From assembly GCA_963677765.1 (NCBI GenBank), contig OY782392.1, forward strand, positions 510,001-542,000: a stretch of 32,000 nt of DNA. The letters run 5' to 3'. Source of the stretch: Candidatus Saccharimonadota bacterium. GTDB lineage: Bacteria > Patescibacteriota > Gracilibacteria > BD1-5 > UBA6164. Below are positions 1-32,000 of this stretch, one piece after another. Below the pieces are notes generated by a model that saw only the letters and a list, made by a program, of their open reading frames with translations, did no database searches and was not told the DNA's origin. Within the stretch, counting starts at the first letter, position 1. Every line of letters starts with the position of its first letter. The translations under genes and the position numbers were made by a program.

Positions 1-401
1 AACTTAGCTCAATCGACTTCTATTTGTATATTTGCTTTTTCTTTTTCAATTCTTCAATAATAATTATAAAAATTAAATTTTTTTCATCAAATAGTAGATA
101 ATTTATATTTTTTTCAATTTCACTTTTGAGATAGAGATAATTTTTCTTTTTTATCTAAAATATCTTCTTCTTTTTGTTTTTGTTTATCTAAAAACTCATC
201 TCAGTGTCAATATCAACAAGTATCTAAATTTTCACACATTCAATCAAATAAAGAAGCTCAACAATTAGGACAAGTTTGTTCAGAAACTAAAATCCTTATA
301 TCTTCTTTTACAGATTCGCTATATAAATCTAAATCACTTGAGGAATTAACTTCATCAATATTTCCATTTAAATCATTAATATCATTTAATTTATTTGCCA
401 T
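1..401 (-). CDS. hypothetical protein with zinc-ribbon-like motif (N-terminal part; continues off the left edge)
   Basis: ATG at 401..399. Open to position 1 with TGA=Gly. Starts MANKLNDINDLNGN... and contains CPNC-TGA = CPNCG followed by further Cys (MCENLDTCGYGH). Confidence 0.5.
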
Positions 402-444
402 AATAATAAATCATAATTATATTTTTATATATTATAACATATAA

Positions 445-1143
445 TTAATCAGATGCAATAATAAGTCATATAATTTTATTTGATTGATTTTCTTTCAATA
501 AAAAAGATAACTCATTAATAGTAGCTCAAGTACTAATAACATCATCTATAATAATAATATTTTTTCATTTTATTATAGATTTGAATTTGTTATTAAAAAC
601 ATAAGCTCATTTTAAATTAATAAGTCTTTGTTTTCTATTTAAATCTGATTGTTGACTTGTATTTTTTATTTTTTTTAGAATATTAGGTATATATTTTATT
701 CAAGATATTTTTGAAAAATTTTTAGCCAGTATTTGTGATCAATTATATCATCTTTTTATTTTTTTTATAAAATGACTTGGTACTCATGTAACTATATAAT
801 CAGATTTATATATAATTTTTTCATTTAATAAAAATTTTTCATATAAAAACTCTGTAAAATCATCATAAATACTTGTTTTATTATAAAACTTAGAATCCCT
901 TATAAGTTTTTTTGTATATTTTTGTTTATAATGATTTAATATTATTATTTTATCATAATAAATATCTTTTTTACACAAATCATGTACTTTATAGTTTAAA
1001 GTATTTCATTTACAAACATAACAAACAGAATCAAATTTATATTCTGATTTTTGACATTGTGGACAAAAAAAGTGTCATTCTTTATTGCAAGAATAACACT
1101 TTTTAGGAGCTATTACATCCAATAATAATTTAAATATAGTCAT
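445..1143 (-). CDS. comFC: ComF-family protein (ComFC-type phosphoribosyltransferase-domain competence protein)
   Basis: ATG 1143..1141, TAA 447..445, 232 aa under table 25. N-terminal Cys clusters (CYSCNKEGHFFCPQC, CYVC). C-terminal PRTase motif IIIIDDVISTGATINE, where the Gly of STGAT is a TGA codon. Confidence 0.85.
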
Positions 1144-1177
1144 ATTTTATAATTATATATATTATTGGGAGAATATT

Positions 1178-2584
1178 TTATTTTAAATTTTTTAATATAC
1201 TAGATATAGAATCAACTCAAAATCAAGTCATTCATTTAACTGTATATCAATATGGTTCAAATCAATTTAAAGCAGTTCAAGCTATATCTAGGTGAGTATA
1301 TTTTTCATTATTCATAAGAAAATTAGCCAAAAAAGCTGCTCACATTGTAGATCAAGCATAAACTCATCTATTTAAGTTTTCTAAATCAGCAATTTTAGAT
1401 TTAGTTTTTTCTATAAAATAATTATCAAAAGGTAATCTATTATATTTTTCAAAATTGTTACTAGAATAATTTAAAAATTCATTTATTAATTTTTCATCAT
1501 TTCACATTATACCAGCATACCTAAATCATAATGCAACCATACAAGCTCAAGTAAGAGTAGCCACACTAATAATTCTTTCTAATTTATAATTATCGCTTAA
1601 ATAACTAATACCATCTGCTAAAACAAGTCTTCATTCAGCATCAGTATGAATAACATCTACAGTTTTTCAACTATAAGATTTAATTATATCACTAGGTTTA
1701 TAAGATTCTCAAGAAATATGGTTTTCTGCTAATGGAATTGCCGCTACAATATTTACATTTAAATCTTTAGTATCTAATTCTTTCATTGTTGCAAAAGTAG
1801 TTGCAGCTCAACACATATCTCATTTCATTTCATACATACTATCTCATGGCTTTACTTGAATTCATCATGTATCAAAAGTTATTCATTTTCAAACTAATCA
1901 AATAGTTGGTAACTTCTTATCAATAATTCTTTCTAATATAACCATATAAGGTTTCTTAGAACTTCATTTTCAAACATTATATAATAAACCAAGTCAAAGT
2001 TTTTGAATCTTGTTAGAATCCAAAATTTTAACTTTTGTATTTTTAAATTTTGTATTATTAATAATATTAGCAAATGATTCTGGATATAAATCATTTGATG
2101 GCATAAATCATAAATCTCTAGCTAATATTATATTTTTTATTGTAGAAACTCTTTCATTTATAATTTTTTTATTTGAATCTGTAGTAATTATATTTATAGT
2201 TTCTTCTTCTTTTTTTGATTTATATTCTTGATATGAATATCTAGATAATAAACAATTATTTAACAAAATACTAACATTTTTATCATTTTTTGTTAAAAGA
2301 GTTAAATTATTAGGAAGAGCTCTAAATATATCTCATAAATAATAATTTATATCTTTTCATTCATTTTGTGAATAAAAAATAACAAAAACTTTTTCATAAT
2401 TTTCATTTCATAAATAAAAATCAAAACAAAAACTTTTATTTAAATCTATATCATTTTTTATTTTATCTAATATTTTTTTTGATATAGATAATCATCTTAA
2501 AACACTAAGTTCAGATTTTTTTTCTACATATACAAGTAAATTCGATTTTTTGGCTTCACTGTGGTTTTTTATTTTATTAATCAT
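1178..2584 (-). CDS. pepA: leucyl aminopeptidase, peptidase family M17
   Basis: ATG 2584..2582, TAA 1180..1178, 468 aa. M17 signatures GKGITFDTGGIQVKP, MKGDMCGAA, HTDAEGRLVLAD and ATLTGAC; most of these Gly are TGA codons. Confidence 0.9.
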
Positions 2585-2608
2585 TGTCTATATATTAAAA
2601 ATATACTA

Positions 2609-3277
2609 TTAAAACAATAGTATATATAAATCTATTATTTTCAAAATAAAATATAAAAATAATAAAGTGGCTATAAATAAAGAATAAACAAGTGATATAT
2701 AATTTATATAATTTTTATGCACTTGATAATTAAAAAATATTAAAAATAATACAATAAAGAATAAATAATATGAAAATTCTATTATATAAATATAAAATAA
2801 TGAACTAATTCATATTAAATAATTTAATATTAATCAAAAATATTTTAAATCTAATTCATATTTTTTTAAAAAAGGTAATTTTGGTAAATGATTAAAACTA
2901 AAATCTCATATTATAAATAATATAATAAAAAATATTATTAATAAATCATAATTAAAAAAACCAAAATATAGTGGTGTAATAAGTAATATATAAAATAAAG
3001 AATAATATAATATTGATTTATCAATTTTATATTTATTTGTATTTTCTGATATCTTAAGTGGGCTAAAATATATAACAAATGTTATTGCTATAGTTAAAAA
3101 TAATACACTTAAAAAAAGTAATGAAATTCAAGTTTCTAAACCTAAATAATTAAATATACTTTCTAATTCAATAGCATATCTATCATTTCATAATATAGTT
3201 TTTCAATTATTTAAATTATAAAAGCTATAAAATATAAATGAAAACAAGGAAGAAACAAAAAAAAGGAGTAATCTCAT
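2609..3277 (-). CDS. multi-pass membrane protein, function unknown (possibly the frameshifted continuation of the upstream ORF)
   Basis: ATG 3277..3275, TAA 2611..2609, 222 aa. Highly hydrophobic (MRLLLFFVSSLFSFIFYSF...). Starts 14 nt after the stop of the 454-aa ORF, in the +1 frame. Confidence 0.5.
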
Positions 3278-3290
3278 TTTTAATATAAAA

Positions 3291-4655
3291 TTAAAAATTA
3301 ATTACTCCAAATATAACTATATTAATTAAAAAAACAAAACTAATAACTAATAAAAATATATTTTTTGAAAATTTTAATAAAATATAAGTAATAATAATAA
3401 CTAAAAAATAAAATATTCATCAAAAATGATAATCTTTAACTTCAAATACTTGAGAAATATTTAGATAAATTATAAAAAATAATGTATATATAAATATTAT
3501 AAAAAATATATAATCTCTAAGTCATTTAAAAAACATTAATATTTCATCTAAAATAGTTTCTATTCATTTTTTTATATATGTATAAGAAAATGAGATTCAT
3601 TTTTCTCTAGCTTTTAATAGTGCAATATTTTGTTTAATTACAATTCTTTTTAAAAATGTTTCTTCTCTTAATTCTTTATTAAAAGCTAATTTTAATATAT
3701 TTACAAAAATAAATTTTGTATTTTGATTCAATCTTTCTTTATATTTTGATAAATATAATAAGCTCTTTATATAAGAATGTGAATGTCTATCAATTCAATC
3801 ATCTTTTTTTTCTTTTTTTAATCATTTTAAAAAATTTGAAAAATTATCACTTAAATTTTTAAATTGATAAACTACATCTCTATCTTTTTCTATAAATTGA
3901 TCTTTTGATCATAATTTTCTTAATAATTTATTTGTATCTTTTAATAACTCTCTATTTTCTTTATTTTTTGTTTTTTCTAACTCTTTTAATTCAATTGATC
4001 ATATTTTTACAAGAGCTAATTCTCAAACTTCTCTTAGTTTAGCTATATTTGTTGATTTTTTTAATTTTATAATTTCATTATAAACATTTTTCAATTTTTC
4101 TCTTTTTTCATTATCTATTTCTATAAGATAATTTCATGATGTTATTTTTTCTAATTTATTTAATACTAATTCTATAAGTTTATTTGTTTCTTCAAGCTCT
4201 TTTTTAAGATAAAAACTCTCTAATTTTTTATTTCAATCTCTTTCTTTTTTTATTTTATCTCTTAATTCATCTATTTTTTCTTTTTTTCAATGGCTGTAAT
4301 ATAAATCATATTCTTCTTCTAATTCTTTTACTATTTTTTTCTTTTCTTCTAATGATTTATTTTCATCACTTTCAGAATAAATAAGATCTATACTATATTC
4401 TAAATTTTTTCTTAATTTTACATATGCCTTAAATATATCATTTCAAACTATTTTTCAGTGCTTAAATTCATTATCTTTATATCATTCAAATATAAAAGTG
4501 TTTCAAATATCTCATTTATCAAAAATTTCTTCCACACTCAAAATAGAGTATCATTCTTTATGAACTCTATTTCTAGCTACTGCTTCATTTTCGGCTTTAA
4601 AAACAATATTATATTTTTTACCGTCTTTTGATACTGATATTTTATAATTATGCAT
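3291..4655 (-). CDS. hypothetical protein: small N-terminal alpha/beta domain, long Lys/Glu-rich coiled-coil region, C-terminal transmembrane helices
   Basis: ATG 4655..4653, TAA 3293..3291, 454 aa with TGA=Gly. Starts MHNYKISVSKDGKKYNIVFKAENEAVARNRVHKEGYSILSVEEI. C-terminus FFIIFIYTLFFIIYL...FYFLVIIITYILL...LLVISFVFLINIVIFGVINF. Confidence 0.6.
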
Positions 4656-4674: not shown

Positions 4675-4917
4675 TTAAGCAAATTTTCAAATTGGATTCG
4701 ATACATTTTCACTAAATGCTCTTTGAAAATCTAATCATTTTTTTTCAAATTCTTCTAAAAAGATTCTATTAAGCTTTGTTGTTTGATTTTCTAGATCTAC
4801 TTTTTCTACATTTGGTAAAAGACTTTCTAGTTTTTCAATATTTACTGACTCCAATCTATCATTTAAATTTTCCGGAGTTTTAATTTGTTCTTTTATTTGT
4901 TCTGGATTATTTTGCAT
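4675..4917 (-). CDS. small acidic hypothetical protein (80 aa)
   Basis: The ORF-track ORF 4735..4917 reads on through one TGA to TAA at 4677..4675. It starts 4 nt after the upstream ORF stop. Confidence 0.45.
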
Positions 4918-4921: not shown

Positions 4922-5233
4922 TTATAGATTATTAATTAAAAATGAAAAAGAATTTATTTCTTTTTTTCTTTCTTCTGCTTCTTTTCTTCTCATTCAAGAA
5001 ATAACAGAAAAATTAGTTTTTTGTATTTGTTCCAATTCTTTTATTTCAACTTCTTCTACAAATTTTACAAGACTAGAATAAATTCTATCAATTCATTCCT
5101 CATCTAAAATATCTAGAGCTTGAATATATAATGATTTTTGTTCATCTGGTATTTCCAAATTCATAATCATTACTTTTGTAAGTTTTATTTTTTCTTTTAA
5201 CTTATCTTGTTTTTTTAAAAAATCAAATAGCAT
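4922..5233 (-). CDS. small hypothetical protein (103 aa)
   Basis: ATG 5233..5231, TAA 4924..4922. Starts MLFDFLKKQDKLKEKIKL.... First gene of a co-directional run downstream of the 348-bp intergenic region. Confidence 0.45.
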
Positions 5234-5581
5234 ATTTTTATATTTATTTATTATATATTTATATATTAACATATATTTTTTTATAAATCAAAAATGTTAA
5301 TTACTTCTTATATATATATGTTTTTTTATATTTTATATAATATATTATTATTATTAATCATAAATGTTAAAATGTTAAAATACCTAATTCTAGCTATTTT
5401 TTTATTTATAATGAATTTATTGTAATTTAAAATATAATTTTATTTATATTATTTAAGCCATTTTTATATTTTATAACATTTTTTTAACAATTAATAAAAA
5501 AAATTATTGACTTGTATTTTTTTCTATAAAACTTATATTTAGAATTAATTATTTTTAACATATATAAATTAACAATAAAAA

Positions 5582-6847
5582 ATGAATGATAAAAAATTTA
5601 ACAATAATTATAAAGTTTTTATTATTTTTTTAACAAGTTTTGTTCTTTGAATTATTTTTACCGCATTTATAGGGAATTATACGAATATAGCTTTGTTAAA
5701 AACTAAAAATTATCAAATAGAAAGTACTTTAGATGACCAACTTGATGTAGATTTATCAAAATATGATAGTGTTTTTAATTTAATTAAAAATTATTATTAT
5801 GATATTGATAATTTAACTAATACTTGATTAATAGATTGATCTATTAATTGATTAGTAGATTGAATTTGAGATAAACATTCAGATTATCTTACAAAAGAAG
5901 AATATATACAATTTAATGAAAATTTATCTTGAGATTTTGAATGAATTTGAGCTGTTATAGAATTACATCCTTTATGAGTACAAATAGATAGGATATTAAA
6001 ATGATCACCTGCAAAAAGTAATGATTTAAGAACTTGAGATATTATTATTACAGCTAATTCTATAGAATTATCATGATTATGACTTATAGAAGCTGTTGAT
6101 AATATTAAATGACCTGCATGAACTAATGTTGTATTAGAAATAATTAGAGAATGAGAAACAGAAATATTAACAAAAGATATAATAAGAAATAAGATAAAAA
6201 TACCTTCTGTTGAACATGAATTATTAGATGATAATATTTGATATATATCTATAAATATGTTTTGAATAGATACTTTTGTAGATTTTCAATCTGCTTTATT
6301 AGATTTAAAAGATACAGACTGAATTATTATAGATTTAAGAGATAATTGAGGTTGATTATTGATGAGTGCAGTTGAAATACTTAGTAAATTTATAGAAAAT
6401 TGAAATGATTTAGTAGTAACAAAATATAAAGAATCAAACAATAATCATAGTTATAAAAGTAATAATTATTGATATTTATATAAATGAAAAATTGTTATAC
6501 TTATTAATGAAAATTCAGCTAGTGCATCAGAAATAGTTGCATGAGCTTTGAGTGATTATGATAAAGCTATTTTAGTTTGAAAAAAATCTTATTGAAAATG
6601 ATCAGTTCAAGAACCTTTTGAATTAGATGATTGAAGTATGGTAAAATTAACTATTGCTAAATGGTTTACTCCTAAATGAGTAAATATAGATGAAGAATGA
6701 ATTAATCCAGATATAGAAGTATGATTTGAAGATGAAGATTTTGAAAATAATTATGATAGACAAAAAGAAAAAGCTATTGAGGTTTTAAAAAACTTTATAT
6801 CTAAACAAAATATTGATTTAGTAAAAAGTGATTATTTAGTAGAATAA
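5582..6847 (+). CDS. carboxy-terminal processing protease, peptidase family S41 (Ctp/Prc-like), N-terminal TM anchor
   Basis: ATG 5582, TAA 6845..6847, 421 aa. PDZ-like segment (GVQIDRILKGSPAKSNDLRTGDIII). S41 motifs DLRDNGGG, INENSASASEIVAGAL and GKKSYGKGSVQ. About 33 in-frame TGA, nearly all at expected Gly positions. Confidence 0.9.
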
Positions 6848-7021: not shown

Positions 7022-8254
7022 ATGTTAAAAAATACAGATAAAGATATTTATGATTTGATTTTAAAAGAAGAATCAAGACAAGAAAATGAAATAGAATTAA
7101 TTGCTTCAGAAAATTATGCTTCATTAGATGTATTAGAAGCTGCTTGAAGTATACTTTCAAATAAATACAGCGAATGATATCCATGAAAAAGATATTATGC
7201 ATGACAAGAAAATATAGATAAAATAGAAAATATAGCTATAAATAGAGCAAAAGAGCTTTTTTGAGCTGAATATGTAAATGTTCAACCTTTATCATGAAGT
7301 CCAGCTAATTTAGCCGTATATTTATGAGTATTAAAACCAGGAGATACTGTTTTATGACTTAGTTTAGATCAAGGTTGACATTTAAGTCATGGTCATCCAA
7401 TGAATTTTTCATGAATATTATATAATATTGTTCCTTATTTTCTTGATAAGGAAAAAGAAATAATAGATATGGATGAAGTTGAACGTATAGCTTTGGAAAC
7501 AAAACCAAAAATGATATTGGCTTGATTTTCTGCATATTCTAGAGATTTAGATTGGAAAAGATTTAGAGAAATAGCTGATAAAGTTTGAGCAATTTTAATG
7601 GCAGATATAGCACATATTGCATGATTAATAGCTTGATGAGTATTAGAAAATCCTGTTCCATATTGTGATATAGTTACTACTACTACTCATAAAACTCTTA
7701 GATGACCAAGATGAGCTATTATTATGTCTAAGGAGAAATATTCAAAAGATATAGCAAGAGCAGTTTTTCCTTGAGTACAATGATGACCACACGAAAATCT
7801 TATTGCAGCAAAAGCGGTTGCTTTCAAAGAGGCTTTAGATCCATCTTTCAAAGTCTATGCTAGACAAGTTGTAGACAACGCAAGGTTTTTAGCTGATTTA
7901 TTAATGAAAAACTGATTTAAAATAACTTCAAATTGAACTGATAATCATTTAATACTTATAGATGTTTTTTCTAGTTTTTGAGTAACATGAAAAGAAGCTG
8001 AAATCGCTTTAGAAAAAGTAGGTTTATCTACCAATAAAAATATGGTACCATATGATGTTAGAAAACCTATGGATCCATCATGAATTAGAATTTGAACTCC
8101 TGCAGTTACTACAAGATGAATGAAAGAAGAAGAAATGAAAATAATAGCTGATGTTTTTACTAGAGCTATCAAGAATCATAATAATGATAATATTTTAGAA
8201 TGATTAAAATCAGAAATATTAGATTTATGTAAAAGATTTCCTATTTATAAATAG
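7022..8254 (+). CDS. glyA: serine hydroxymethyltransferase
   Basis: ATG 7022, TAG 8252..8254, 410 aa. Motifs [33 protein letters not shown] (PLP lysine) and FPGVQGGPHEN; many of the Gly are TGA. Confidence 0.95.
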
Positions 8255-8368: not shown

Positions 8369-8956
8369 ATGTACAATTTAACAAGACAAGAAGCAGCGGA
8401 TTTATTAAATGTATCAACTAGAAGTGTTGATAGATATATAAAATCATGAAAAATAAGATCAAAAAAAGATTGAAAAGTTGTTTATTTGCATTCATGAGAT
8501 GTAGATAATTTATGAGATTGAAATAATACTAAACAAGAAGTTATTGTTGAAAAACCAAAAACTTCTAATTATACTTATACTAAATCAACTATTGATAATT
8601 CATCTAAATCTATAGACTTAGAATCAAATTTCAAAAAAACAGCTTTAGATGAAGTTTATAGTGATTTGAGAAATGAAATAAAAGAAAAAGATAATATTAT
8701 TAAAGAATTATCTATAAGAGTATGAAGAGCAGAAGAAATTGCTAAAAACTCTGTTTCTTTGATGGATTTTAAAAAATCACAATTTATTTTAGAAGAATCT
8801 AAAAATAGTTTAAATGAATCTATTAGTAAATTAAGTGATGAAAATGAACAATTATCATGAGAATTAAAATATCAAAAAACAAATAATATTATTCTTATAA
8901 TTGCACTTATAGTTTTATTTGCTATATCTTGAACAATTTTTGTTTTAACTATATAA
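8369..8956 (+). CDS. membrane-anchored helix-turn-helix protein (excisionase/MerR-type HTH, coiled coil, C-terminal TM)
   Basis: ATG 8369, TAA 8954..8956, 195 aa. N-terminus MYNLTRQEAADLLNVSTRSVDRYIKSGKIRSKKDGK resembles excisionase-family HTH domains. C-terminus NIILIIALIVLFAISGTIFVLTI is a TM helix. Confidence 0.6.
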
Positions 8957-9008: not shown

Positions 9009-9083
9009 GTCCCTATAGTTCAACGGATAGAACAAACCCCTCCTAAGGGTTAGATGTTGGTTCGATTCCAGCTGGGGATACCA
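9009..9083 (+). tRNA. tRNA-Arg (anticodon CCT, reads AGG), CCA end encoded
   Basis: Hand-folded 75-nt cloverleaf. Acceptor GTCCCTA/TGGGGAT (two G-U pairs). D arm GTTC-AACGGATA-GAAC. Anticodon arm AACCC-CTCCTAA-GGGTT. T arm GTTGG-TTCGATT-CCAGC. Discriminator A plus CCA. It is the local GC peak of the window. Confidence 0.85.
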
Positions 9084-9110: not shown

Positions 9111-9139
9111 AAAAAAACAAGCAATTAGCTTGTTTTTTT
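9111..9139. terminator. bidirectional terminator shared by the tRNA (+) and mutL (-)
   Basis: Arms aaaaaaacaagc (9111..9122) / gcttgttttttt (9128..9139), with A-run and T-run flanks. Overlaps the mutL stop codon. Confidence 0.55.
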
Positions 9140-10988
9140 ATCTTTCATATTTATTTTTTAATTCTTCTAAATCAATATCAAAAACTACTGGTCTTCAATG
9201 AGGACAAGTTGCAGAATAATCTTCAACTGCATCATTTAATAATTTATTCATTTCAAATAAGTTTAATTTATTTCAAAACTTTATTGCAGATCTACAAGCT
9301 GTATATGCAAATATTTTATTTTTTACTTCATCTAAAGTTTTTGATTTATTAAAGCTATGTTCTCATATATCATCAAGAATTCAAGTAAATATATTATTTA
9401 AGTTTTCTTTTTTTATAAAATCAGGAATTCAATTTATTATAACATTATTTCCCGGTAATAATTCTAAATCAAATCACATTTCATAAAAAGTGTCTATATT
9501 GTCTTTTAAAATATTGGCTTCATTTGGCCTAATATTTATACTTTCAGCTATTAATAATCATTGAGTTGATACTTTTTTGTCTGCTTTGACAAGTTTTTCA
9601 TATATTATTCTTTCTGCTAAAGCATGTTGATCTAAAAACTTTATTCAAAAATTTGTTTCTACTATAATATAAGAGTTATGAGCTTGTCATATTATTTTTC
9701 ACATCTTAGTATAATGTAAATCATTTGAATTTTGTTCATTATTTGTATTTAAAAAATCATTATTTTCTCCTTTATTTAAGCCAAAACTTAAATTATTTCA
9801 TATATTGATTTGATTTGGATTACTTTCTATATTTTTGTAAGGAGAGTATGATTTAAACTTTGTACCTGATCAACTATAGTATTCTTTTTTTTGTTCGAAA
9901 TTATTATTATTGTTTGATATTGTACTATTGTGAGTACTCATTTTTCATAAAAAATAACTATTTATATCATTTTGTTCTTTTATTTGATTTGATACTAAGC
10001 TTACTGATTCCAATTTTTGGTTTATTGAATGGTAAACAGCTCTAAATATTGATTGCTCATTTGCAAATCTTATTTCAAGTTTTCTTGGGTGTACATTTAC
10101 ATCTATTTGTGTAGGATCAACTTCAATATCTAAAATATATGCAGGATGAGTTCAATGAGGAATATATCTATTATATGCATCATTTATTGATTTAGAAATC
10201 AGATAAGAGTTTATAGGTCTTTTATTTACATATAAATTTTGTCTATTTTTATTATTATAGTTTACTTTTGGGTCAGATATATATCATTTTATACTTATTC
10301 ATTGCATTCAAAAGTCAATTTCAAGTATATTATCAGATATATCATTAGAATAAATATTATATATTCTTGTTATTTTATCTTCATTTTCTTTGTATTTGAA
10401 TATTTGTTTTCAATCAGATATAAATTCAAATCATATTTCTGGATATATAAGGGCTATTTGATATAAATAATTTAAAATATGATTGTATTCTGTTCTAGCT
10501 GTTTTTAAATAATTTAATCTTGCAGGAGTATTATAAAATAAATTTTCAATTATAATTTTAGTTCATTTATCTCTTGGGCAAGTTATTATTTTTTGTTTTT
10601 CTCATCATAAAACCTTTATACTAGATCAAAAATCATCAACTTGGTTTTTTGTTTCAATTGTCATATCTGATACTGATGATATAGATGAAATAGCTTCTCA
10701 TCTAAATCAAAAAGTCATTATATTATGAAGATCTTTTATGTTTTTAATTTTAGAAGTAGAATACTTTTCTACTGCTAAGTCTAAGTATTTTTTTTCTATA
10801 CCATCTCAATCATCATCTATATATATTTCTTTTATTCATCATTCTATTATAGATACTTTTATATTTTTTGAATTAGCATCTATAGAGTTTTCTATTAATT
10901 CTTTTATTACAGAAACAGGTCTTTCAACTACTTCTCAAGCAGCGATTTGATTTGATAAAACCTTATCTAATTTTATTATTTCAGCCAC
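9138..10988 (-). CDS. mutL: DNA mismatch repair protein MutL
   Basis: GTG 10988..10986 (an in-frame TAA lies 3 codons upstream and there is no ATG before the conserved N-terminus). TAA 9140..9138, 616 aa. Motifs [58 protein letters not shown] and CPHGRP. Confidence 0.9.
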
Positions 10989-11713: not shown

Positions 11714-11783
11714 TTATTTTATTTAACTATTTATTATATATTTATAGTATATAAATTTTTGTTTAAAAAAAAAGATAAATCTC

Positions 11784-12017
11784 TTATGATTTATCTTTTT
11801 TATCTTTGAATATATCCATAACTGAATCTTTTATTTGTTCTGGTATAGAAGCATAAGCACTAAAAATTTGTTTTATTTTATTATAAAACTCTACTATTTC
11901 CATTACAGGTCATAGTATTTTTAATACTCTTATAATCAAAACTATAAGAAGAGTTCAAATTATTGATGAAAATACAATTAATACTAAATAAAGTATTTCT
12001 AATATAGTTAATTCCAT
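11784..12017 (-). CDS. small membrane protein (77 aa)
   Basis: ATG 12017..12015, TAA 11786..11784. One TM helix (ILYLVLIVFSSIIGTLLIVLII). The stop lies inside the hairpin aaagataaatc/gatttatcttt, which is followed by a T-run on the minus strand. Confidence 0.45.
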
Positions 12018-21124: not shown

Positions 21125-23272
21125 TTAATCTTCATCAGGTAATTTGAAACCTCTTTCTTCTCTAATTTTAGTAGCAACGTTAGTTGGAACTTCTTCATAA
21201 TGATCAAATTCCATAGCATATGTAGCTCTACCTTGAGAAGCAGATCTTAAATCAGTCATGTAACCAAACATTTCTGATAATGGAACAAAAGCAGTAATAA
21301 TTTTTGCCATACCTCTGTTACCCATTTCTTCAATTCTACCTCTTTTTGAGTTTAATTGACCGATAACATCACCCATATATTCTTCAGGAGTATTAACTTC
21401 AACTTTCATTATTGGTTCTAATAAAGTAGCTTGTGCTTTTCTACATGCTTCTTGGAAAGCTTTAGAAGCAGCTAATTTAAATGATAATTCAGATGAGTCA
21501 ACATCATGGTAAGAACCAAATGTAAGAGTAGCTTTTATATCAACCATTGGATAACCAGCTATAAAACCTCTTGCATAAGCTTCATTTAACCCTTTTTGAA
21601 CACCAGGAATATATTCTTTAGGTATTGTTCAACCAACTATTTTATTAACAAATTTATTTGATGGTTTTTCTTTTAATTCAGCTTTAGTGTCATCTTCATC
21701 CATTTCTTTGTATGGTTCAAAAGTGATAACAACGTGACCGTATTGACCTCTACCTCAAGTTTGTTTAGAGTATTTATGTTCAACATCAGTAGCTATTCCT
21801 TTTATAGTTTCTCTATATGAAACTTGAGGTGCACCTACATTACATTCAACTTTAAATTCTCTTTTCATTCTATCAACAATGATATCTAAGTGTAATTCAC
21901 CCATACCAGAGATAATAGTTTGAGCAGTTTCTTCATCAGTTCTAACTCTGAATGAAGGATCTTCTTCAGCTAATTTTGATAATGCCATACCCATTTTTTC
22001 TTGATCAGCTTTTGATTTTGGTTCTACTGATATAGAAATAACTGGTTCAGGGAATTCAATTGATTCTACTAAGAATTTATCATTTACATCACAAAGAGTA
22101 TCTCAAGTTTTTGTAGCTTTTAAACCTACTATAGCTCAGATATTACCAGCAGTTATTTCTGGAATTTCTACTCTATCATTTGCATGCATTTGTAATAATC
22201 TACCAACTCTTTCTTTTTCTCAAGTAGTAGCATTATAAACATAAGAACCTGATTTTAATGTACCAGCATAAACTCTTGTAAAACATAGTTTACCAACAAA
22301 TGGATCAGTAGCAATTTTAAACGCTATTGCAGCTAATGACGAATTATTTGCAACATCAATTTGTTTAAAGTTTTCACCTGATTCAATATCTTTACAATCA
22401 ATTTTTGCATCATTTACATCAACTGGAGAAGGTAAGAATTCAACAGCAGCATCAATAACCATTTGTACACCTATATTTTGTAATGCAGAACCACAAACAA
22501 CAGGATATAGTTTATTGTTTATAACAGCTTTTCTTAACCCTGCTTTTAATTCTTCAACAGTTAATTCACCTTCTTCAAAATATTTTTCCATTAATTCATC
22601 ATCTTGAGAAGCAATTTTTTCAACCATTTCTTCTCTTAATTCAGAACATCTTCCAGCTATATCAGCAGGAATTTCAATTTCAGTAATATTTTCACCTGAA
22701 TCACCTTCAAAATGGTAAGCTTTCATTCAAATTAAATCAACTATACCTTCAAATGTTTCAGCAGCTCCAATAGGATATTGAATAGGACAAACTTTATCTC
22801 AAGCTAATCTTTTTTTGATAGTATCAACTGACATTTCAAAGTCACCACCCATTTTATCCATTTTATTAACGAATGCTATTCTAGGAACTTTGTATTTATC
22901 AGCTTGTTTCCAAACAGTTTCTGATTGAGGTTCTACTCATTGAGAACCGTCAAATACAGCTACTCAACCGTCTAATACTCTAAGAGATCTTTCAACTTCT
23001 ATAGTAAAGTCTACGTGACCAGGAGTATCAATGATATTTATTTGATGATCTTTCCAGAATGCAGTAGTTGCAGCAGAAGTAATTGTAATACCTCTTTCTT
23101 TTTCTTGTTCCATCCAGTCCATTGTACCTTCACCATCGTGAGTTTCACCGATTTTGTGAATTCTACCTGTATAGTATAAAATTCTTTCTGTACAAGTAGT
23201 TTTACCTGCATCGATATGGGCAATAATACCTATATTTCTAATTTTATCTAAAGGAGCTTGTTTATTACTCAT
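21125..23272 (-). CDS. fusA: translation elongation factor G
   Basis: The four ORF-track fragments (21125..21547, 21755..21994, 22220..22726, 22964..23272) are all in one frame and join through TGA codons, giving 715 aa. Motifs [51 protein letters not shown] and [12 protein letters not shown]. Confidence 0.97.
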
Positions 23273-23455: not shown

Positions 23456-23483
23456 AAAAAAGAAGTTATTAAACTTCTTTTAT
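23456..23483 (-). terminator. small hairpin overlapping the stop of the 221-aa ORF
   Basis: Arms aaagaagtt (23459..23467) / aacttcttt (23472..23480), with a T-run on the minus strand. Confidence 0.4.
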
Positions 23484-24134
23484 ATCTAATTTTTTTATAT
23501 TATTTATTACTTCAGAAATTATAAAATCTGATATATTTAATGCTTCATTTTTTGATATAGATATATTTATATCTTTTAAAAAGAATATAAATATTAAAGC
23601 TATATATTGATTTATTACTTCTTTATCATTTTTTAATAATTCTATTATTTTTTTTGTTTGAATATTTGAGTATTCTATTGTTAATGAATCAATAATATCT
23701 TCTATCCATTGATTTATTCTTATTTTTACTTCTTCTGATAGATTATTATCACTAAATTTTATATTTTCTTCTGATTTATAATTAAAATTTACTTTTTCTT
23801 TATTTGATAATTCTCTTATTTTATTTGAAACATCAATATTTATTATAGACATTATTCATACAACAAAATTAGATGTATATCAATAATCCATAGTTTTAAA
23901 TAATCTTTCTAATATAGTATCATATTTTTTATCAACTATTATAGCAACCAATAAATTAGCCAACAAAAAATCATATTTTTTGGCTTTTTTTTCATCCTTT
24001 TGAGTTCTTTTTATTCATGCGCTAGATTTTTTAGAGCTTTCTTTGTATTTTTCAGATATTTCTTTTGATACCTCAGAACTATTTCAAGATGATTCACTAG
24101 ATTCTATATTTGGAATAAATTCATCTAAAGACAT
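23469..24134 (-). CDS. hypothetical protein (221 aa)
   Basis: ATG 24134..24132. Reads through 4 TGA into the ORF-track ORF 23469..23852, in the same frame. Ser/Lys-rich N-terminus. No recognisable motif. Confidence 0.55.
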
Positions 24135-24184: not shown

Positions 24185-25000
24185 TTAAAAAATTATTTTA
24201 ATACATCTATCTATTCATGAGTTATCTTTATAATAATAATTTTTTAAATTTTTATTTTCAAGATATAATTTAGAGTATTCTTTTTGATCAAATCAAATTT
24301 CTATAAATAGAGTTATATTTCATATTTTTTTACATTGTTCTATTAATTTTTCATACAGTTCAAATCATGTTTTTTCTCATCAATATAATGCTAAATCTGG
24401 TTCATAATTTATTGTTTCTATACTCATATTATCAAAATCATTGTTTTTTATATATGGTAGATTTGCTGTAATTACTTTATAATTAGAAGATTCCTTATAT
24501 TTTTCTAATAAGTTAGACTCTATTTGTGTTATGTTTTTTATAGCATGTTTTTTAATATTTATTTTACTTACTTCTAATGCTTCTTTTGATATATCAATAA
24601 CACTAGATTTAATTATTTTATCTTTATTTATATTTTTTATAACACTAATAGCTATACAAGAACTTCATGTTCATATATCTATATATTCTATTTTATCTTT
24701 TTTGTTTATTTCTTTTATTGTTTCATTAACCATTATCTCAGTATCATTTCTAGGAATTAGAACTCTAGAGTCTACATAAAAATCTAAAGAAAAAAATTCA
24801 GCTTTATTTACTATATATTCATAAGGTACTTTCTTTTCTAGTAATTTCTTTATCTCATTTATTTTTTCTTCTTTTATATCTAAATCATCACAAAAAAACA
24901 ACTGGTTATTATTTAAACCAGTATATTTTTTTATTATTTCATTTACCTGATAATTATTTAAATATCATGATAGAATTTTATTTATTTCTATTTTTTTCAT
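24185..25000 (-). CDS. prmC: peptide chain release factor N5-glutamine methyltransferase (HemK/PrmC)
   Basis: ATG 25000..24998, TAA 24187..24185, 271 aa. Motifs VDSRVLIPRNDTE, the SAM-binding DIGTGSSCIAIS, and the catalytic NPPY-type motif as ANLPYI. Confidence 0.85.
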
Positions 25001-25001: not shown

Positions 25002-25763
25002 TTAATTTTCAAATTTTTTTCTAGAAAATATTAATACTGTAAAATATATAATTATAGCAAGATATAAAATAGAGTAAAAAATATTTAATATAAAATATGT
25101 GTTAGTTAGATTTGAAAAACTTCAAACTAGATCTTTTGTATTAAGTGCTTCAAGAGGAGGAAATAATAATTGAATAGATTTTCAAATATTTATAATTAGT
25201 TCATTTTTAGTTTTTACTAGCATGTCTAATATTAAACTATAGCTATGTGAAGCTAAATATAACATTAAACTACTTGCTATAACAAGTATGTTAGACATAA
25301 AAGTCGACATAAAGAATACTATGGCAAGAAGTATTTCTAGTTTTATGAAGGTATTAATTATTGACCAAATAATAATATTTGTTATCTCTATATCTTTAAT
25401 CAATAGTACAGCTAAAAATACTATAGATTGAAACAAAGTTATTAAAAATATAGTAGCTGAAAAACCAAGTATTTTTCCAAGTATAAAATCACTTCTCTTA
25501 ATAGGTTTACTTAGTATTAAAAATATAGTTTTTCATTCTACTTCTTTAAAAAGTAGTTGACTTCATACAAATAAAACTCAGATTAGTCAAAAAACTTCTA
25601 TCATTGCTAATCAAAAATCTGTTATTATTTTTGAATCCTCTCATAAGCTCAATTGAGCTAATATCATTGAAAATGCTATAAAAATTAATCAGAAAAAGAC
25701 TATCATATATAAAAATCTATTTCTAACTATTTCTTTAAATGTATTAATTGCTATATTAAGCAT
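25002..25763 (-). CDS. ABC-2 family transporter permease (no cognate ATPase in the window)
   Basis: ATG 25763..25761, TAA 25004..25002, 253 aa with six predicted TM segments. Contains the ABC-2-type loop EVEGKTIFLILSKPIKRSDFILGK. Confidence 0.65.
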
Positions 25764-26700
25764 TGTTTAAAAAATTATATTCTAAAAATTCTTTATTTCA
25801 GTTTATAAAAGTATTTATATCCATTTCTTTTTTTCATTCAAGCTTAACTTTTTTTAAAATAATTGTTCAGTTTATAGTACTTACAAATATTTGTTTTTCT
25901 TTTTTTATTATTTTTCAAGCTTCTGTATTTATTTTTTCGTCTAAGTAGTCAATATCTTCAAAACTTATTTTTTTGTTTTTATAGTAACTAAAAACTCATG
26001 GCCAAGACTTATATGCTTTGAATTTACAAAATATTTGTTTTGCTGTTTCTTCTTGCCAGTTTATTTCTCAATCTTTTTTTTCAATTTTTGAACAATATGT
26101 TGCTTCGTTTTCATCTTGTTTTATAGCTTTTATTTCTTTTTTTATTATTCATTTTAATGTTTCAACTAAAACATTAGGAGCTATTTTTTCAAATTTTTTG
26201 AATATATCTTCTGTTTTATCATATTTTTCTATTTTTACTTTTTCTATTTTTAAAATATCTCATTCGTCCATTCATTCTGACATATACATTATAGTCACAC
26301 CAGTTTCTTCATCTCATGATTTTATAGATTCTTGTATAGGGCTAGCTCATCTATATTTTGGTAATATAGATCAGTGTATATTTATACATCAATATTTTGC
26401 AGAATTTAAAACTTCTTTTGGAACTATTTTTCAATAAGCAACAACAACTATAAAATCAAGATCTAAATCTTTTAGATTATCAAAAAATTCATTATTTTCT
26501 TTTAGTTTTATTGGTTGTAAAACATTTATAGAGCTTTTTATTGCAAGTTCTTTTACTGGAGTAGCTATAATTTCTTTTTTTCTTCAAACTGGTTTATCTG
26601 GTTGAGATACTACTAGTTTTATATCTAAATCTTCTTTTTTTATTAAATCTTCTAATATGTTTTTAGAAAACTCTCATGTTCAAAAAAATGCTATTTTCAT
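25756..26700 (-). CDS. fmt: methionyl-tRNA formyltransferase
   Basis: ATG 26700..26698, TAA 25758..25756, 314 aa. Motifs MKIAFFGTGEFS, VVVAYGKIVP, NIHGSILPKYRGASPIQ and EGMDEGDIL. Confidence 0.92.
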
Positions 26701-26702: not shown

Positions 26703-27392
26703 TTATTTGTTTATATTAATAAATGATTCTGCTCAATTCTTTTCAAAATAAATAAATGCTTCACTTATATCTGATCATGAGCTTGTTAAATATTTTTTAC
26801 CTCAAATATTTTTTATTTCTATTTTATTTATATCTGATCATCAGATAGTTTCTGTTATTTTAGTTATGATGATTTCAGATTCTTCCTTGTCTATTTTTTT
26901 TAATTCTAAATTATTTAATGTTTTGTTTATAGCTCAAGATAAGCTTCATGATATTTTATAGTCATATCATACTTCATTGTCAAAGTTATAACTATTTGTT
27001 CATACTGTTGTTGCAACATTTATTTTGTGATCTTTATATATATTAATTTTCCATTCATTTCATGGGTTTCAATATATTTCTAATTTAGCTATATTATTAT
27101 TTATTTGAGATATTTCTTGTGTTATATCTTCTCAAGCAATATTTTCGTGAACTATATAACTGCTATTACTTATATTTTTGTCAAATTTTACTTCATAATC
27201 AAATATTTCTTTGTTTTTTATTTTTCTATCAAGTTCTTCTATTTTATTTATTATTTGAGAAGTCTTTAATTTTATAGTATTTTCTTCTAAAAAATTTAAA
27301 AATCAGTTCAATGTTACAACTGAAATTATAGATACAATACTTATTGATACTAGTATTTCAATTAATGTAAATGCTATTTTTTTATTTTTCAT
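26703..27392 (-). CDS. type IV pilin-like protein with prepilin N-terminal cleavage/methylation motif
   Basis: Start chosen at ATG 27392..27390. TAA 26705..26703, 229 aa. N-terminus MKNKKIA-FTLIEILVSISIVSIISVVTLNG is a class III signal: short basic leader, FTLIE with Glu at +5, and a hydrophobic helix. Confidence 0.7.
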
Positions 27393-28441
27393 TTTTTTAA
27401 AATTAAGGTCTCCATTATTTTGTTGATAAATATAACAACAAAAACTATTATAATAAAAACTATTATTTTTCATGTTTTTTCTAAAAACAATGCAGTTAAT
27501 CAAAACATAAAAGATAAACTATATACTGAAAAAAGTACTTGTTTTTTTGTTAATCATATATCTAATAGTCTATGATGCAAGTGAGTAAAATCTCATGATA
27601 AAGGATTTTTTTTGTTTATTAATCTTCTTATTATAACATAAACTGCATCTACACTATATATACCAAAAACAACTAATACTGTTGCTATTTTTCATCATGC
27701 TATTATTGCTAATGTTGCAAGCATAAATCATAAAAACATTGTTCAACTATCTCACATTAATATTTTTTGTTTAAAATCAAACCACCAAAAAGGTAATATT
27801 ATCGCTAGTAGTATTAATGTTAGTTTCATTATAAATATAGCATTTTCAATTCATCAAGCATAGTTATCTTCATAGAATAATATTGTTCATAATAGAAATA
27901 ATATTAAAAATGATATAAATGATAATCCTGAAGTATTTCATTGTATTCAATCTGACCAGTTTAAAGCATTAAATATAAATACATACCAAACAATAGTAAA
28001 AAATAATGGTATTAAGTATATTGTATAGTTAAAAACTTCTATAAAATATGTTTCTAAATCTATTATTCATCAAAAAATATTGCTTACATATCATATTTTT
28101 ATTGATGTTATTCAAATTACTGCTCATATTATTATTTGAAAGATTAGTCTTATTTTTGCACTTACATTAAGCATATCATCTATAAAACTAATAGCAGTTA
28201 TAAAAAATCAAAATGTCCAAATAAGTCATAATTTGTAATTATAGTCTACAAAAAAGTAACTTATAAGAAAAAAACAAACAAAAAAGATAACTCACATACT
28301 GTAAGGTATAGGAGCTCTTTTTAATTTGTATTTTTTTGGATTATCTAATATGTTATATTTATAAAATAGTTTTTTAAATCCTATTATTGTGAATAATGAT
28401 AATAAAAATCAGCTTATAAATATAATAAAATATTCTATCAT
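27374..28441 (-). CDS. glycosyltransferase family 4 polyprenyl-phosphate sugar-1-phosphate transferase (WecA/TagO-like)
   Basis: ATG 28441..28439, TAG 27376..27374, 355 aa, multi-TM. Motifs ISFIDDM, NALNWSDGIQG, MGDSGTMFLG and DFTHLHHRLL; the last favours WecA over MraY. Confidence 0.8.
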
Positions 28442-29154
28442 TTTGTTGTGTATTTTTTAAGTAATTTTGTATAAAAAACTAATACAGTACTAGTTAGTAT
28501 AAAGTATCATAAAGCTACTCAATCTATATTTCAATTTACATAGCTTAAATATAATCAAATACCTGATCATAATACTATTCATATAACTCAAAATAAGTTT
28601 AACCAATATCTAAGTATGTCATTTGTACTAACTAATCAAGTTGTTACTAAAGAAAATCATAGTCACATGATTATAGCAAAATATTCAGCGCTAAAATTTA
28701 TTGTTGTAAATCATAGGTTTATATCTTTATTAGAAAATGTTATAAAAAATATCAATAAAGCTATATTTAATACTCATAGACTTGCTGCATTTATAATTTT
28801 TATATCTTTGTTGAAATTATAAAAAGTAAAAGCCTTAAAAGCTGATAATATATATGCTAATTGCCATATGATATATTGAGATTGATTTAGTGCTAGTAAT
28901 CAATATATAGAAATTGTTGTAAATATAGCAGTTGCTGTAACATGATATATAGCTCATACTTTGTTGTTTTTTGAACTATAATTAGCTTGCATAACCATTA
29001 TAAATAGATTTCATAAAAAATTAGCAAAGAATAATATTATTATTTCTAATAAATTACCTTTTCATGTAACATAAACTATTATTAAAGCAATAGCTAATAG
29101 TAAATATATCCACCAGTTTTCTTTTGAAAACTTTTTCAGTTCTTGTATTAACAT
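28435..29154 (-). CDS. multi-pass membrane protein, function unknown
   Basis: ATG 29154..29152, TAG 28437..28435, 239 aa. ENWWIYLLLAIALI at the N-terminus and 6-7 hydrophobic segments. Its stop overlaps the WecA-like start (ATGATAG). Confidence 0.5.
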
Positions 29155-29263: not shown

Positions 29264-29331
29264 TTTTGATTTTCTTTTATTGTTTCTAGTTGATGTATGT
29301 AAATGCTTCATGTAGAATTATTTTGGAAGTC
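29264..29331. repeat. 68-bp intergenic copy of an internal segment of the large surface-protein gene
   Basis: ttttgattttcttttattgtttctagttgatgtatgtaAatgcttcatgtagaattattttggaagtc matches 30287..30354 at 67 of 68 positions. The single difference is a at 29302 versus g at 30325. Confidence 0.9.
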
Positions 29332-29363
29332 GTTACTAGTAGATTATTGTTTTAAATAGAAAT

Positions 29364-29393
29364 AATATCTAATCCTGACAAGGATTAGATATT
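29364..29393 (-). terminator. 13-bp-stem hairpin containing the stop of the 151-aa ORF
   Basis: Arms aatatctaatcct (29364..29376) / aggattagatatt (29381..29393), loop gaca. Confidence 0.5.
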
Positions 29394-29824
29394 GTTTTAT
29401 TAAACAAATAAAAATTAATATCATCTCTACTAGGTAAAAAATATTCATAAGGAATATCATACTTAGGATATGCAAAATAATTTTTTTTATAAAGATATAT
29501 ATTAAATAATGATTCTAATTTAAATCAAAAAATATAAGGAACTCTATCTTCTGATTTGTAATTTCTTAAATAATAACAATTTTTTATAGGTTTTATATTT
29601 TGATTATATATTTTATTAAAATCTTTTAAATATAGAAATTGCTCATCATTTCTTTTTAAGTCTTTTAATACTATTTTAACTTTTTCTAATTGTTTAAAAT
29701 TATAGTTATCTATATATAGTCAATATGATTCTCTGACAATAAACATTACTAACAAAATTAAAAATCATATCTTAAATACTTTTATATCTATTTGTTTAAT
29801 TATTTTTTTTATATTTTCTTTCAT
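29369..29824 (-). CDS. hypothetical N-terminally membrane-anchored protein (151 aa)
   Basis: ATG 29824..29822, TAG 29371..29369. TM helix VFKIGFLILLVMFIV followed by a Tyr/Asn/Lys-rich domain. Starts 11 nt after the stop of the large gene. Confidence 0.5.
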
Positions 29825-29835
29825 ATTTTAATTAA

Positions 29836-32000
29836 TTATTTTTTATTATTTCATTTTAAAAATTTATTCTTAAAATCTAGATTTACTATATTTTGTCAGT
29901 TATTTAGTTTTATTTCAAAATAATTATTAGTTGGTTTTTCTTGTTCCCAGTTTGGTTTCATAACTATTTTTATACTATAATTTCATCTTTCTAAATCTTT
30001 AAATTCATAATATCAATTATTATCTGTAACTACAAATGATTCTTGATTTTCTTGTAGTTTTCAATCATTGTTACTATCTATATAGATTTTCCATCATGCC
30101 ATATTTGAATTTCATGGAGAATTTATTCATTTTAGATATCATGATATACTTCAAGTTTCATTTTCACTCTTTGGGAGTGAATTAAAGTAACTTTGTATAT
30201 CATATAATCAATCATTATTTGTATCTATAGAATATGATATACTATTATCTTCTTCATTTATTACTTTATTCCAGTTAATATCAAAATTTTGATTTTCTTT
30301 TATTGTTTCTAGTTGATGTATGTAGATGCTTCATGTAGAATTATTTTGGAAGTCATCTACTAATATATTGTATGAATTATTTTCGGTTTTATTATCATCA
30401 AAATCTATTTTAATATTTTCTCTTGATATATTAAATGTATCTGTTTGTCATAAGCTAGTACTTATTCACTCCAGTTTTGTATAATAGTCTCATCATGCTA
30501 TCATTATGTCATACTTTTCTTCAGCTTTACCATTTATTTCTATACTTAGATTTTCTAGTTTTTGTGGTAAGTAGATTTGTTTCCAATTATTTTGTTCTAA
30601 ATCACCATTTAATGGAACTAAAAGTCTAGCTCAAGGAATTTCTTCAAAAATATTTCAATCTTTATATCATACTTTATTACCATCTTTATCTTTTAATAAA
30701 AAATCAGAATCTCATTTGAAAGTATATAATATATCAACTACATTAAATCAAATAGGAAAAGATTTATTTCAATTATTGTTGACTTCCTCTATATCCATTA
30801 ATCATATCAATGTTAAACTTGTTTCATTAGCATCTTGTCTAGAGGTTATTTCAATATTTCAATCATTAATTTCTATATATTGTTCATATGATTTTAACTC
30901 TCAATATTCCTCACTATTAAAAAATGGAAACTTAACTACATTATCATAAATATATATTCTATTTCATTCTATTCTATATGGAATCACAGAGTGTCAGGTA
31001 AGTTTTCAATCAGATTTTTTCCATTCAAAATTAAGTATATATTTTTTATCTGGATTATTTTTTAGAGTTTCAAGTATTTTATTTGGATTTAAAGTATGAA
31101 TTCAAATAATATTTTTAGGGATTCAATCATTATTTAATTGATAATTATTTTTATTGTATTGAGATAAATGAAAAGCAAATATATCTTCTAAATCATCACT
31201 ATATAAATCCCAATTTTGATTTAAATCAGAGCTAGGATTACTAATCAAATCATATATATTACCATTTTTTATTTTAGTGTATAATCTGTTATGATTTTGC
31301 TCTAGATAATTTGGTATATTTTTACTTTTAAAATAATCATCTTGATATTTTAATAATGATAAAGTTGATAATCAAAAACAACTACCATTATTTATAAATG
31401 TTATATCATTATTTAATCATAATGATTCATATGCTCTAATTCTTTTAATTTCTCATTTTTCAAATCAAGTTCAAGCTCTTGTATCAAAAGCTTTATCAAA
31501 TATTTTCCATTTTCTTCAATCATCTTCTGATATTTTATAAAAAGGTTTATTATATGTAAATTTTATATCATATGTTCAAGTTAGTATTCAAGTAGCTGGA
31601 CTTCAATTCACAAAATTAAACCCATAAGGATAAGGTTCAAATCATTCAAAAAGTGAAAAATCTATTTCCCATGTTTGGTTTGTAACATAGTCAACTACTT
31701 CACTTTCATTTCAATTATTGTCAGTTATTTTTGCTTTCCATATATAATTTCATTCTCATATATATGGTACTATAGTAGTTCATGTTCATGAAATAAGCTC
31801 TATACTATCAGTATATAAAGGAGTTTTTTCTCATTTTCTATATACTTCAAATACCATGTTATATTTAGTTGTTGTATCGTTTTGTATACTTGCTTCCAAT
31901 ATTATTCAACTTCAAGATTGAAACTTACCTATACTACTTCATAGTTCTATCTCTTCTTTTTCTAGAAGTGGTGATTTTATATATTGTTTTAAGTTTGTTG
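29836..32000 (-). CDS. large secreted/surface protein (C-terminal 720 aa in window): beta-sandwich region, putative papain-like Cys/His module, Ca-binding-type DxNxDG loops, C-terminal SdrD-B-like domain
   Basis: One frame stays open from 31998 to TAA 29838..29836 with TGA=Gly. NNGSCFGLS (Cys codon 31378..31380) and TGHSVIPY (His codon 30991..30993) lie 129 residues apart. Also DTNNDGLYD, and GWKIYIDSNNDGKLQENQESFVVTDNNGYYEFKDLERGNYSIKIV. Confidence 0.7.
30287..30354. repeat. parental copy of the 68-bp repeat, inside the large surface-protein CDS (encodes DFQNNSTGSIYIHQLETIKENQN)
   Basis: Direct repeat of 29264..29331 with an offset of exactly 1023 bp. Weaker similarity continues for about 20 nt on the right-hand (higher-coordinate) side only. 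Confidence 0.9.

Follow-up and report, generated by a model that had tools for sequence, protein, structure and literature searches.

What does TGA mean in a stretch of DNA in which almost no gene survives translation with the standard code? The window, that is, the whole 32,000-nucleotide stretch analysed here (contig OY782392.1, positions 510,001 to 542,000, Candidatus Saccharimonadota bacterium), had been proposed in a sequence-only reading to use in-frame TGA for glycine, as in translation table 25, and neither as a stop nor for tryptophan. The codon meaning is demonstrated by the analysis presented here: UGA is glycine and UGG is tryptophan. We put the probability at about 0.95 that the window is a normal piece of chromosome from an extremely AT-rich, UGA-recoded member of the Patescibacteria (candidate phyla radiation, CPR) that has a small genome and uses genetic code 25. 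Code 25 is already known from this lineage, and nothing in the window is new in kind.

TGA is a sense codon throughout the window

The window has a GC content of 21.8%. Measured as stop-to-stop open reading frames (ORFs) of at least 100 aa in six frames, coding coverage under table 11 is 21.0% of the window, with a longest ORF of 272 aa. With TGA read as sense, the coverage is 92.6% and the longest ORF has 720 aa; freeing TAG in place of TGA gives a coverage of only 30%. With TGA as sense, the window is tiled by 31 non-overlapping genes plus rplS, and each gene carries between 2 and 49 in-frame TGAs, rplS excepted, which has none. The proposal that TGA is sense across the entire window, with about 475 in-frame occurrences, is thus borne out, as is the warning that a table 11 annotation of this DNA would be wrong. 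Gene calling under the different codes showed that table 11 breaks every gene, and that tables 4 and 25 yield the same ORF structure and the same coding density.

Full-length elongation factor G (EF-G), serine hydroxymethyltransferase (SHMT), GatA, PepA, MutL, Fmt, elongation factor P (EF-P) and RNase Y emerge once TGA is sense. Pfam searches, run with X at each TGA, confirmed PepA (M17), the S41 protease, SHMT, MutL, GatA, ComEC, nucleoside diphosphate kinase, EF-P, RNase Y and EF-G, and also Fmt, a pilin-like protein, a family 4 glycosyltransferase and a PrmC-like methyltransferase. The window as a whole and the genes on which the argument draws are the following.

1 to 32000, no strand: whole window, coding DNA; TGA sense (Gly), TAA and TAG the only terminators
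1 to 401, minus: Cys-rich (CPNC-x) zinc-ribbon-like protein; 12 TGA; 3' end off the window; no Pfam match
445 to 1143, minus: ComFC-like phosphoribosyltransferase-domain protein; 10 TGA (DDVISTxAT); weak Pribosyltran match
1178 to 2584, minus: leucyl aminopeptidase PepA (M17); 31 TGA; Pfam E=2e-80; 15/22 aligned TGAs Gly in Escherichia coli PepA
5582 to 6847, plus: S41 C-terminal processing protease (CtpA-like); 33 TGA; Pfam E=4e-39
7022 to 8254, plus: SHMT; 28 TGA; Pfam E=7e-137; 24/28 Gly in E. coli GlyA, alignment full length
9138 to 10988, minus: MutL, GTG start; 29 TGA; Pfam match; 10/26 aligned TGAs Gly in E. coli MutL
13282 to 14736, plus: GatA amidotransferase subunit; 31 TGA; Pfam E=2e-107
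15999 to 17444, minus: ComEC competence channel; 27 TGA; Pfam E=5e-36
18310 to 18738, minus: nucleoside diphosphate kinase; 5 TGA; Pfam E=4e-14
18755 to 19312, minus: EF-P; 11 TGA, 6 GGN; Pfam match; 8/11 TGAs Gly in E. coli Efp
19388 to 20869, minus: RNase Y; 18 TGA; Pfam RNase_Y_N and HD
21125 to 23272, minus: EF-G; 9 TGA against 50 GGN; Pfam match
24185 to 25000, minus: PrmC/HemK-like methyltransferase; 9 TGA; weak MTS match
25756 to 26700, minus: methionyl-tRNA formyltransferase (Fmt); 17 TGA; Pfam match; 12/17 Gly in E. coli Fmt
26703 to 27392, minus: type IV pilin-like protein (N_methyl motif); 13 TGA; start chosen at MKNKKIAFTLIEIL
27374 to 28441, minus: glycosyltransferase family 4 (MraY/WecA type); 24 TGA

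The gene ends point in the same direction. Among the 30 complete ORFs, 25 stop at TAA and 5 at TAG. When TGA is read through, residues 8-712 of EF-G align to 3-703 of the 704 residues of the E. coli ortholog, and SHMT 7-410 aligns to 12-416 of 417. Because these read-through proteins are collinear with their E. coli orthologs from end to end, TAA and TAG are real stops.

The fragmentation of every gene under table 11 is also what one would see if TGA were a true stop in a region of pseudogenes, a selenocysteine codon, or a site of programmed readthrough. The fragments, however, join in frame into conserved proteins of full length that score highly in Pfam, and the TGA positions are kept as TGA or GGN in relatives, as described below. 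A density of 47.8 TGA per 1000 codons, together with glycine-specific placement, fits neither selenocysteine nor decay. This explanation is already refuted, and we give it practically no weight.

TGA specifies glycine and not tryptophan

Which amino acid TGA encodes was read from alignments to standard-code orthologs, in which each TGA was scored as a neutral X. Orthologs of seven window proteins in E. coli K-12 (fusA, fmt, glyA, ndk, efp, mutL and pepA) offer 115 aligned TGA sites; the facing residue is Gly at 74 of them, Ala at 15 and Trp at none. The glycines encoded by GGN serve as a control, and 48 of 68 (71%) face Gly in the same orthologs. The low figure for MutL (10/26, listed above) comes from a weakly conserved protein. 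Two further comparisons were read from HMMER alignments to Pseudomonas aeruginosa proteins of known structure: 24 of 31 TGAs are Gly in GatA (PDB 4wj3), and 18 of 30 aligned TGAs of the S41 protease are Gly in CtpA (PDB 7rpq). Pooled over the E. coli and PDB orthologs, the 176 masked TGA sites face Gly 116 times and Trp not once. Tabulating the residue opposite each TGA of the conserved proteins, as the sequence-only reading had suggested, therefore returns mostly glycine and never tryptophan.

A broader sampling of a single protein gives the same answer. In a MAFFT alignment of EF-G with 78 standard-code species, every species (78/78) has Gly at the TGA sites 112, 506 and 548; at site 390 the count is 73/78 and at site 351 it is 60/78. 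Elsewhere the TGAs of EF-G fall on Ala/Gly or variable positions. Like the pooled counts, these invariant sites support glycine as the meaning of TGA.

The protein motifs named in the sequence-only reading were all recovered in the translations. EF-G contains KTxDTLC, IVGxTIPKEY, two 12-letter motifs and TMDWMEQE, the last with its Trp encoded by TGG. GGSSxxSAAAVAAx was found in GatA, xKxITFDTxx and DAExRL in PepA, DLRDNxGx in the S41 protease, DDVISTxAT in ComFC, FPxVQxxPH in SHMT, and CPNCx in the zinc ribbon. The more general statement, that TGA falls on invariant glycines, holds for most sites and fails for about one third, which lie at variable positions, as is also the case for GGN glycines. 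The S41 motif is present, and its first TGA faces Pro in P. aeruginosa CtpA.

Tryptophan is the obvious competing assignment. In code 4, used by the Mycoplasmatales, several insect endosymbionts and, as reported in the 2026 gTranslate preprint, a few Patescibacteriota, UGA is Trp. In ORF structure and coding density this code cannot be told apart from table 25, and a public protein collection stores the proteins of the window with W at TGA. The alignments speak against it, since 0 of the 176 masked sites are Trp and 0 of the 26 aligned Trp residues of E. coli face a TGA. Conserved Trp positions are all TGG: the TGG sites face Trp in 6/6 cases in the E. coli orthologs, and the three EF-G TGG sites are Trp in 80/81 sequences, so the earlier argument from TGG against a tryptophan code stands.

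Codon composition leads to the same conclusion. In-frame TGA accounts for 4.72% of codons, GGN for 1.24% and TGG for 0.42%. With a spurious antisense ORF (see below) excluded, the window contains 475 TGA, 100 GGT, 15 GGA, 6 GGG, 1 GGC and 42 TGG codons. Read as Trp, TGA would produce a proteome with 5.1% Trp and 1.2% Gly, whereas reading it as Gly gives 6.0% Gly. A proteome with 5% Trp and 1.2% Gly is not credible, and 6.0% Gly is normal. In the related recoded contigs described next, TGA is exchanged with TGG once and with GGN 176 times. As far as sequence comparison can judge, the tryptophan assignment is already refuted by the alignment data, and we regard it as very improbable.

TGA thus makes up 79% of the Gly codons in the window, and GGA (15-17 occurrences, about 15 of 597 Gly codons), GGG (6) and GGC (1) have almost disappeared. 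The arginine codons are similarly skewed: AGA occurs 229 times, AGG 10 times and CGT twice, and CGA, CGG and CGC are not used in about 9,900 in-frame codons. Among the codons sampled well enough to judge, no other reassignment was found; for AAG, AGG and others the aligned sites are too few. A change of CGA/CGG to Trp has also been proposed for Absconditabacteria (Shulgina & Eddy 2021), and the codons concerned have no uses among those of the window.

TGA and GGN replace each other among recoded relatives

Three related, collinear and recoded contigs were compared with the window: L167 (NCBI GCA_041694155.1, contig JASMTS010000012.1), which shares 76% amino-acid identity with the window; L007, a Logan contig from SRR13107671; and L008, from a Candidatus Gracilibacteria metagenome-assembled genome (MAG; JAAXWG010000001.1). 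Opposite the TGAs of the window, these relatives carry TGA 460 times, GGN 176 times, TGG once and another codon 132 times.

In four recoded loci, TGA and GGN together always account for 6.0-6.7% of codons. What varies is the TGA share of Gly codons, which is 17% in an SR1 MAG locus (36% GC), 44% and 59% in two intermediate loci, and 79% in the window, climbing as the GC content drops to 22%. A steady sum, with a TGA share that increases as GC decreases, is as predicted if TGA and GGN are synonymous and subject to AT mutation pressure.

Placement of the window in the known code 25 lineage

The sequence-only reading had placed the window in a Gracilibacteria/Absconditabacteria-like lineage. In an EF-G scan with one genome per GTDB species, the best match was a Candidatus Gracilibacteria MAG with 77% identity, and the remaining matches, at 58-64% identity, were a varied set of Patescibacteria, Bacillota and Campylobacterota. 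Of the 80 loci in the scan, L008 and the SR1 MAG locus L058 alone have the ORF pattern that marks TGA recoding; the relatives L005-L007 have it as well. In a neighbour-joining (NJ) tree of 82 EF-G sequences, the window, L007, L008 and the SR1 locus L058 form an exclusive clade. The nearest EF-G being that of a Gracilibacteria MAG, and the clade including an SR1 MAG, the placement is supported.

The NCBI label is a poor guide to the code. One locus labelled Candidatus Gracilibacteria (L018, JAIPGZ010000017.1, 46% GC) is unrecoded, with a table 11 coverage of 0.96, so the label 'Gracilibacteria' alone does not imply table 25. This agrees with the gTranslate preprint, which limits the table 25 organisms to the GTDB class JAEDAM01 (orders BD1-5 and Absconditabacterales) and does not extend them to all NCBI Gracilibacteria.

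The window resembles the code 25 organisms (BD1-5 and SR1; JAEDAM01) in having UGA as Gly, UAA and UAG as stops and UGG as Trp, in the small AT-rich genome suggested by its source contig (1,048,296 bp), and in a CPR-like gene content that includes ComEC, ComFC, a type IV pilin and GatA. There is no difference in kind from this lineage; with 21.8% GC the window is close to the lower limit of the published range (0.21-0.53), and its TGA share of Gly codons is 79% versus 17% in the SR1 locus. The closed Gracilibacteria genome of Sieber et al. 2019 (PMC6851277), of about 1.3 Mb, likewise has code 25 and low GC, with prfB absent and prfA present. Compared by description, it has 28.9% GC and 1.34 Mb, versus 21.8% GC in the window and 1.05 Mb for the source contig. 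The code 4 systems (Mycoplasmatales, Hodgkinia, Zinderia, Nasuia and Stammera) have also captured UGA in reduced, mostly AT-rich genomes, with the same ORF structure and with the loss of release factor 2 (RF2) as the presumed enabling step. They differ in that UGA is Trp there and Gly here (none of the masked sites being Trp), and their lineage is unrelated.

Decoding machinery

In the window, UGA is decoded as Gly, with UAA and UAG left as the only stops. Judging from published work on the lineage, the decoding tRNA would have the anticodon UCA and the glycine identity elements G1:C72, C2:G71, G3:C70 and U73, and RF2 would have been lost. Under AT mutation pressure, TGA has become the usual codon for glycine (79% of Gly codons), and the genes of the translation apparatus retain GGT in its place. 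Three published results form the background to this scheme. Proteomics proved that UGA is Gly in BD1-5 (PMC4032931); prfB was absent and prfA kept in every BD1-5 genome available then (PMC6851277); and tRNA genes with the anticodon UCA and the identity elements for glycine were described from the lineage, whose GC content ranges over 0.21-0.53 (PMC8629427).

Some observations weigh against the code 25 interpretation. About 34% of the TGA sites face a residue other than Gly, although the share for GGN glycines is comparable (29%). The lineage placement comes from one protein and a distance tree. Finally, there is no tRNA(UCA) within the window, in which tRNA-Arg(CCT) is the sole tRNA called by ARAGORN and the only match in Rfam, both at the gathering cut-off and at E<=1. 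ARAGORN likewise found no tRNA(UCA) in 48 EF-G loci and the close relatives, and there is none in about 90 kb of related recoded loci.

Pattern scans for Gly-type UCA tRNAs in viral and metagenome contigs returned mostly phage tRNA-Leu(CAA), tRNA-Glu or a repeat resembling short interspersed nuclear elements (SINE-like). A few genuine Gly-identity UCA tRNAs occur on AT-rich recoded public contigs (L164/L090 and L113), none of which is linkable to the genome of the window.

Several of these hits deserve a description of their own. L164 and L090 hold the same UCA tRNA with the full set of Gly identity elements (GCGGGTA...TACCCGC-T), at 11751-11823 and 480-552, respectively; their source is Ga0208460_10000166 / IMGVR_UViG_3300025877_000004, a contig of 49 kb with 29% GC that was classed as viral. 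This viral-classed contig has 27 TGA per 1000 codons, and TGA and GGN together make up 5.4%. It may belong to a phage or mobile element with code 25, or be a genome fragment that was misclassified. Gly-type UCA tRNAs (GCGGG...CCCGC-T) are also found on the GC-rich contigs L114 (62%) and L110 (53%), which show no sign of TGA recoding, and these may be suppressor tRNAs. The SINE-like hits are nearly identical copies of one repeat, about 85 nt long (GGGGCGGGGATAGCCGAGTGGTAGCATCTCGGACTTCAAAGCAAGAGGGCCCGGGTTCGATTCCCGGTGGGGGCAAAGAAGTTTAGTGA), in about 40 loci among L104-L166 from the metagenomes Ga0209781 and Ga0209364. The repeat fits the tRNA pattern and ARAGORN makes no tRNA call; it looks like a tRNA-derived dispersed repeat unrelated to the window.

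TGA is rare in genes of the translation apparatus

The use of TGA is uneven within the window. EF-G, EF-P and ribosomal protein L19 taken together have TGA at 20 of 82 Gly codons, compared with 455 of 521 elsewhere (Fisher p = 3e-31). The TGA share of Gly codons is 15% in EF-G, 0% in L19 and 87% in the other genes. The related contig L007 shows the same contrast: its ribosomal proteins (genes at positions 1-2605) and elongation factors have TGA at 46 of 163 Gly codons, versus 217 of 289 in the others (p = 2e-22). The L19 gene is as follows.

12671 to 13024, plus: ribosomal protein L19 (rplS); 0 TGA, 6 GGT; syntenic PF01245 ortholog in L007 and L167

Picking the longest ORF favours a 126-aa antisense frame (12658-13035, minus strand) over this gene; we rejected the antisense frame as spurious. 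The synteny with L007 and L167 (PF01245) indicates that rplS (117 aa) is the real gene.

Glycine in EF-G is encoded almost entirely by GGT (45 GGT, 3 GGA), while the SR1 ortholog mixes GGA and GGT. The GGT bias, set against the mixed usage in SR1, points to selection for GGT and against TGA, not to frozen ancestral codons. Horizontal acquisition of EF-G was considered as a cause of its few TGAs and rejected, the nearest relatives being the recoded L007 and L008, which share this bias.

A rival reading takes TGA as ambiguous, mostly Gly but a stop or inefficiently read in some contexts, so that some gene ends would be miscalled. The avoidance of TGA in these three genes could then reflect a decoding cost. 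One gene does end in TGA-TAG (28435-28440). Against such ambiguity, every one of the complete ORFs ends in TAA or TAG, the ends of the conserved proteins match those of their E. coli orthologs, and homology runs past each internal TGA. With 475 in-frame TGAs, appreciable termination would be lethal, and prfB is reported absent in BD1-5 genomes (PMC6851277). We consider an ambiguous TGA very improbable.

Within code 25, a more specific picture can be sketched, which we hold to be doubtful at present: that UGA has become the default Gly codon, with GGA near-extinct and CGA, CGG and CGC unused, and yet selection bars UGA from the genes of the translation apparatus. If this were true genome-wide, decoding by tRNA-Gly(UCA) would still cost speed or accuracy long after the reassignment, and the bias would provide a quantitative handle on the maturation of a captured stop codon. 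The UGA-default state may also be accompanied by unassigned CGR codons and by the loss of tRNA-Gly(UCC), a loss that would account for the scarcity of GGA.

Consequences for annotation

The main consequence is practical, and the value of the window lies chiefly in annotation. It is a clean case at very low GC: UGA has largely taken over from GGN, and the bias is linked to expression. In a public collection of 15 billion proteins, EF-G, SHMT, GatA, EF-P and Fmt are stored only with Trp at TGA and never with Gly. According to the gTranslate preprint, the coding-density heuristics of common pipelines (CheckM/GTDB-Tk) fall back on table 4, and the stored proteins are consistent with such a fallback. 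The table 4 (Trp) translation in the public collection is likewise wrong, and the warning issued for table 11 extends beyond it. The fallback misplaces Trp at about 4.7% of residues, catalytic and structural glycines included. Proteins mistranslated in this way degrade homology searches, the building of hidden Markov models (HMMs) and structure prediction lineage-wide.

Remaining genes and minor observations

The other features of the window are listed here.

2609 to 3277, minus: membrane protein; 6 TGA
3291 to 4655, minus: hypothetical coiled-coil/membrane protein; 19 TGA
4675 to 4917, minus: small hypothetical protein; 2 TGA
4922 to 5272, minus: small hypothetical protein; 2-3 TGA
8369 to 8956, plus: helix-turn-helix-domain protein with a C-terminal transmembrane segment; 8 TGA
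9009 to 9083, plus: tRNA-Arg(CCT), sole RNA gene in the window; ARAGORN; Rfam 62.6 bits
11012 to 11713, minus: DUF2238-type membrane protein; 10 TGA; the L007/L167 ortholog has PF09997
11784 to 12017, minus: small membrane protein; 2 TGA
12031 to 12525, minus: hypothetical protein; 7 TGA
14803 to 16002, plus: acidic hypothetical protein; 11 TGA
17449 to 18243, minus: polytopic membrane protein, start uncertain; 18 TGA; no Pfam match with X at TGA
23469 to 24134, minus: hypothetical protein; 4 TGA
25002 to 25763, minus: ABC-2 type permease; 9 TGA
28435 to 29154, minus: membrane protein; 17 TGA; 3' end AAA TGA TAG
29369 to 29824, minus: hypothetical protein; 3 TGA
29836 to 32000, minus: large hypothetical protein, 5' end off the window; 49 TGA in 721 codons

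The relative L167 has a tRNA-Arg(CCT) at the position matching that of the window. An EF-P identical to that of the window occurs on Logan contigs from the SRA runs SRR32022433 and SRR32608973. MutL apparently starts at a GTG (10988), the first in-frame ATG lying 92 codons downstream, within the conserved ATPase domain. At 28435-28441 (minus strand), the AAA-TGA-TAG end of the upstream membrane protein gene overlaps the ATG of the downstream family 4 glycosyltransferase gene (ATGATAG). This arrangement resembles what an ancestral ATGA stop/start overlap would leave behind, with its TGA now encoding Gly and the adjacent TAG terminating the gene.

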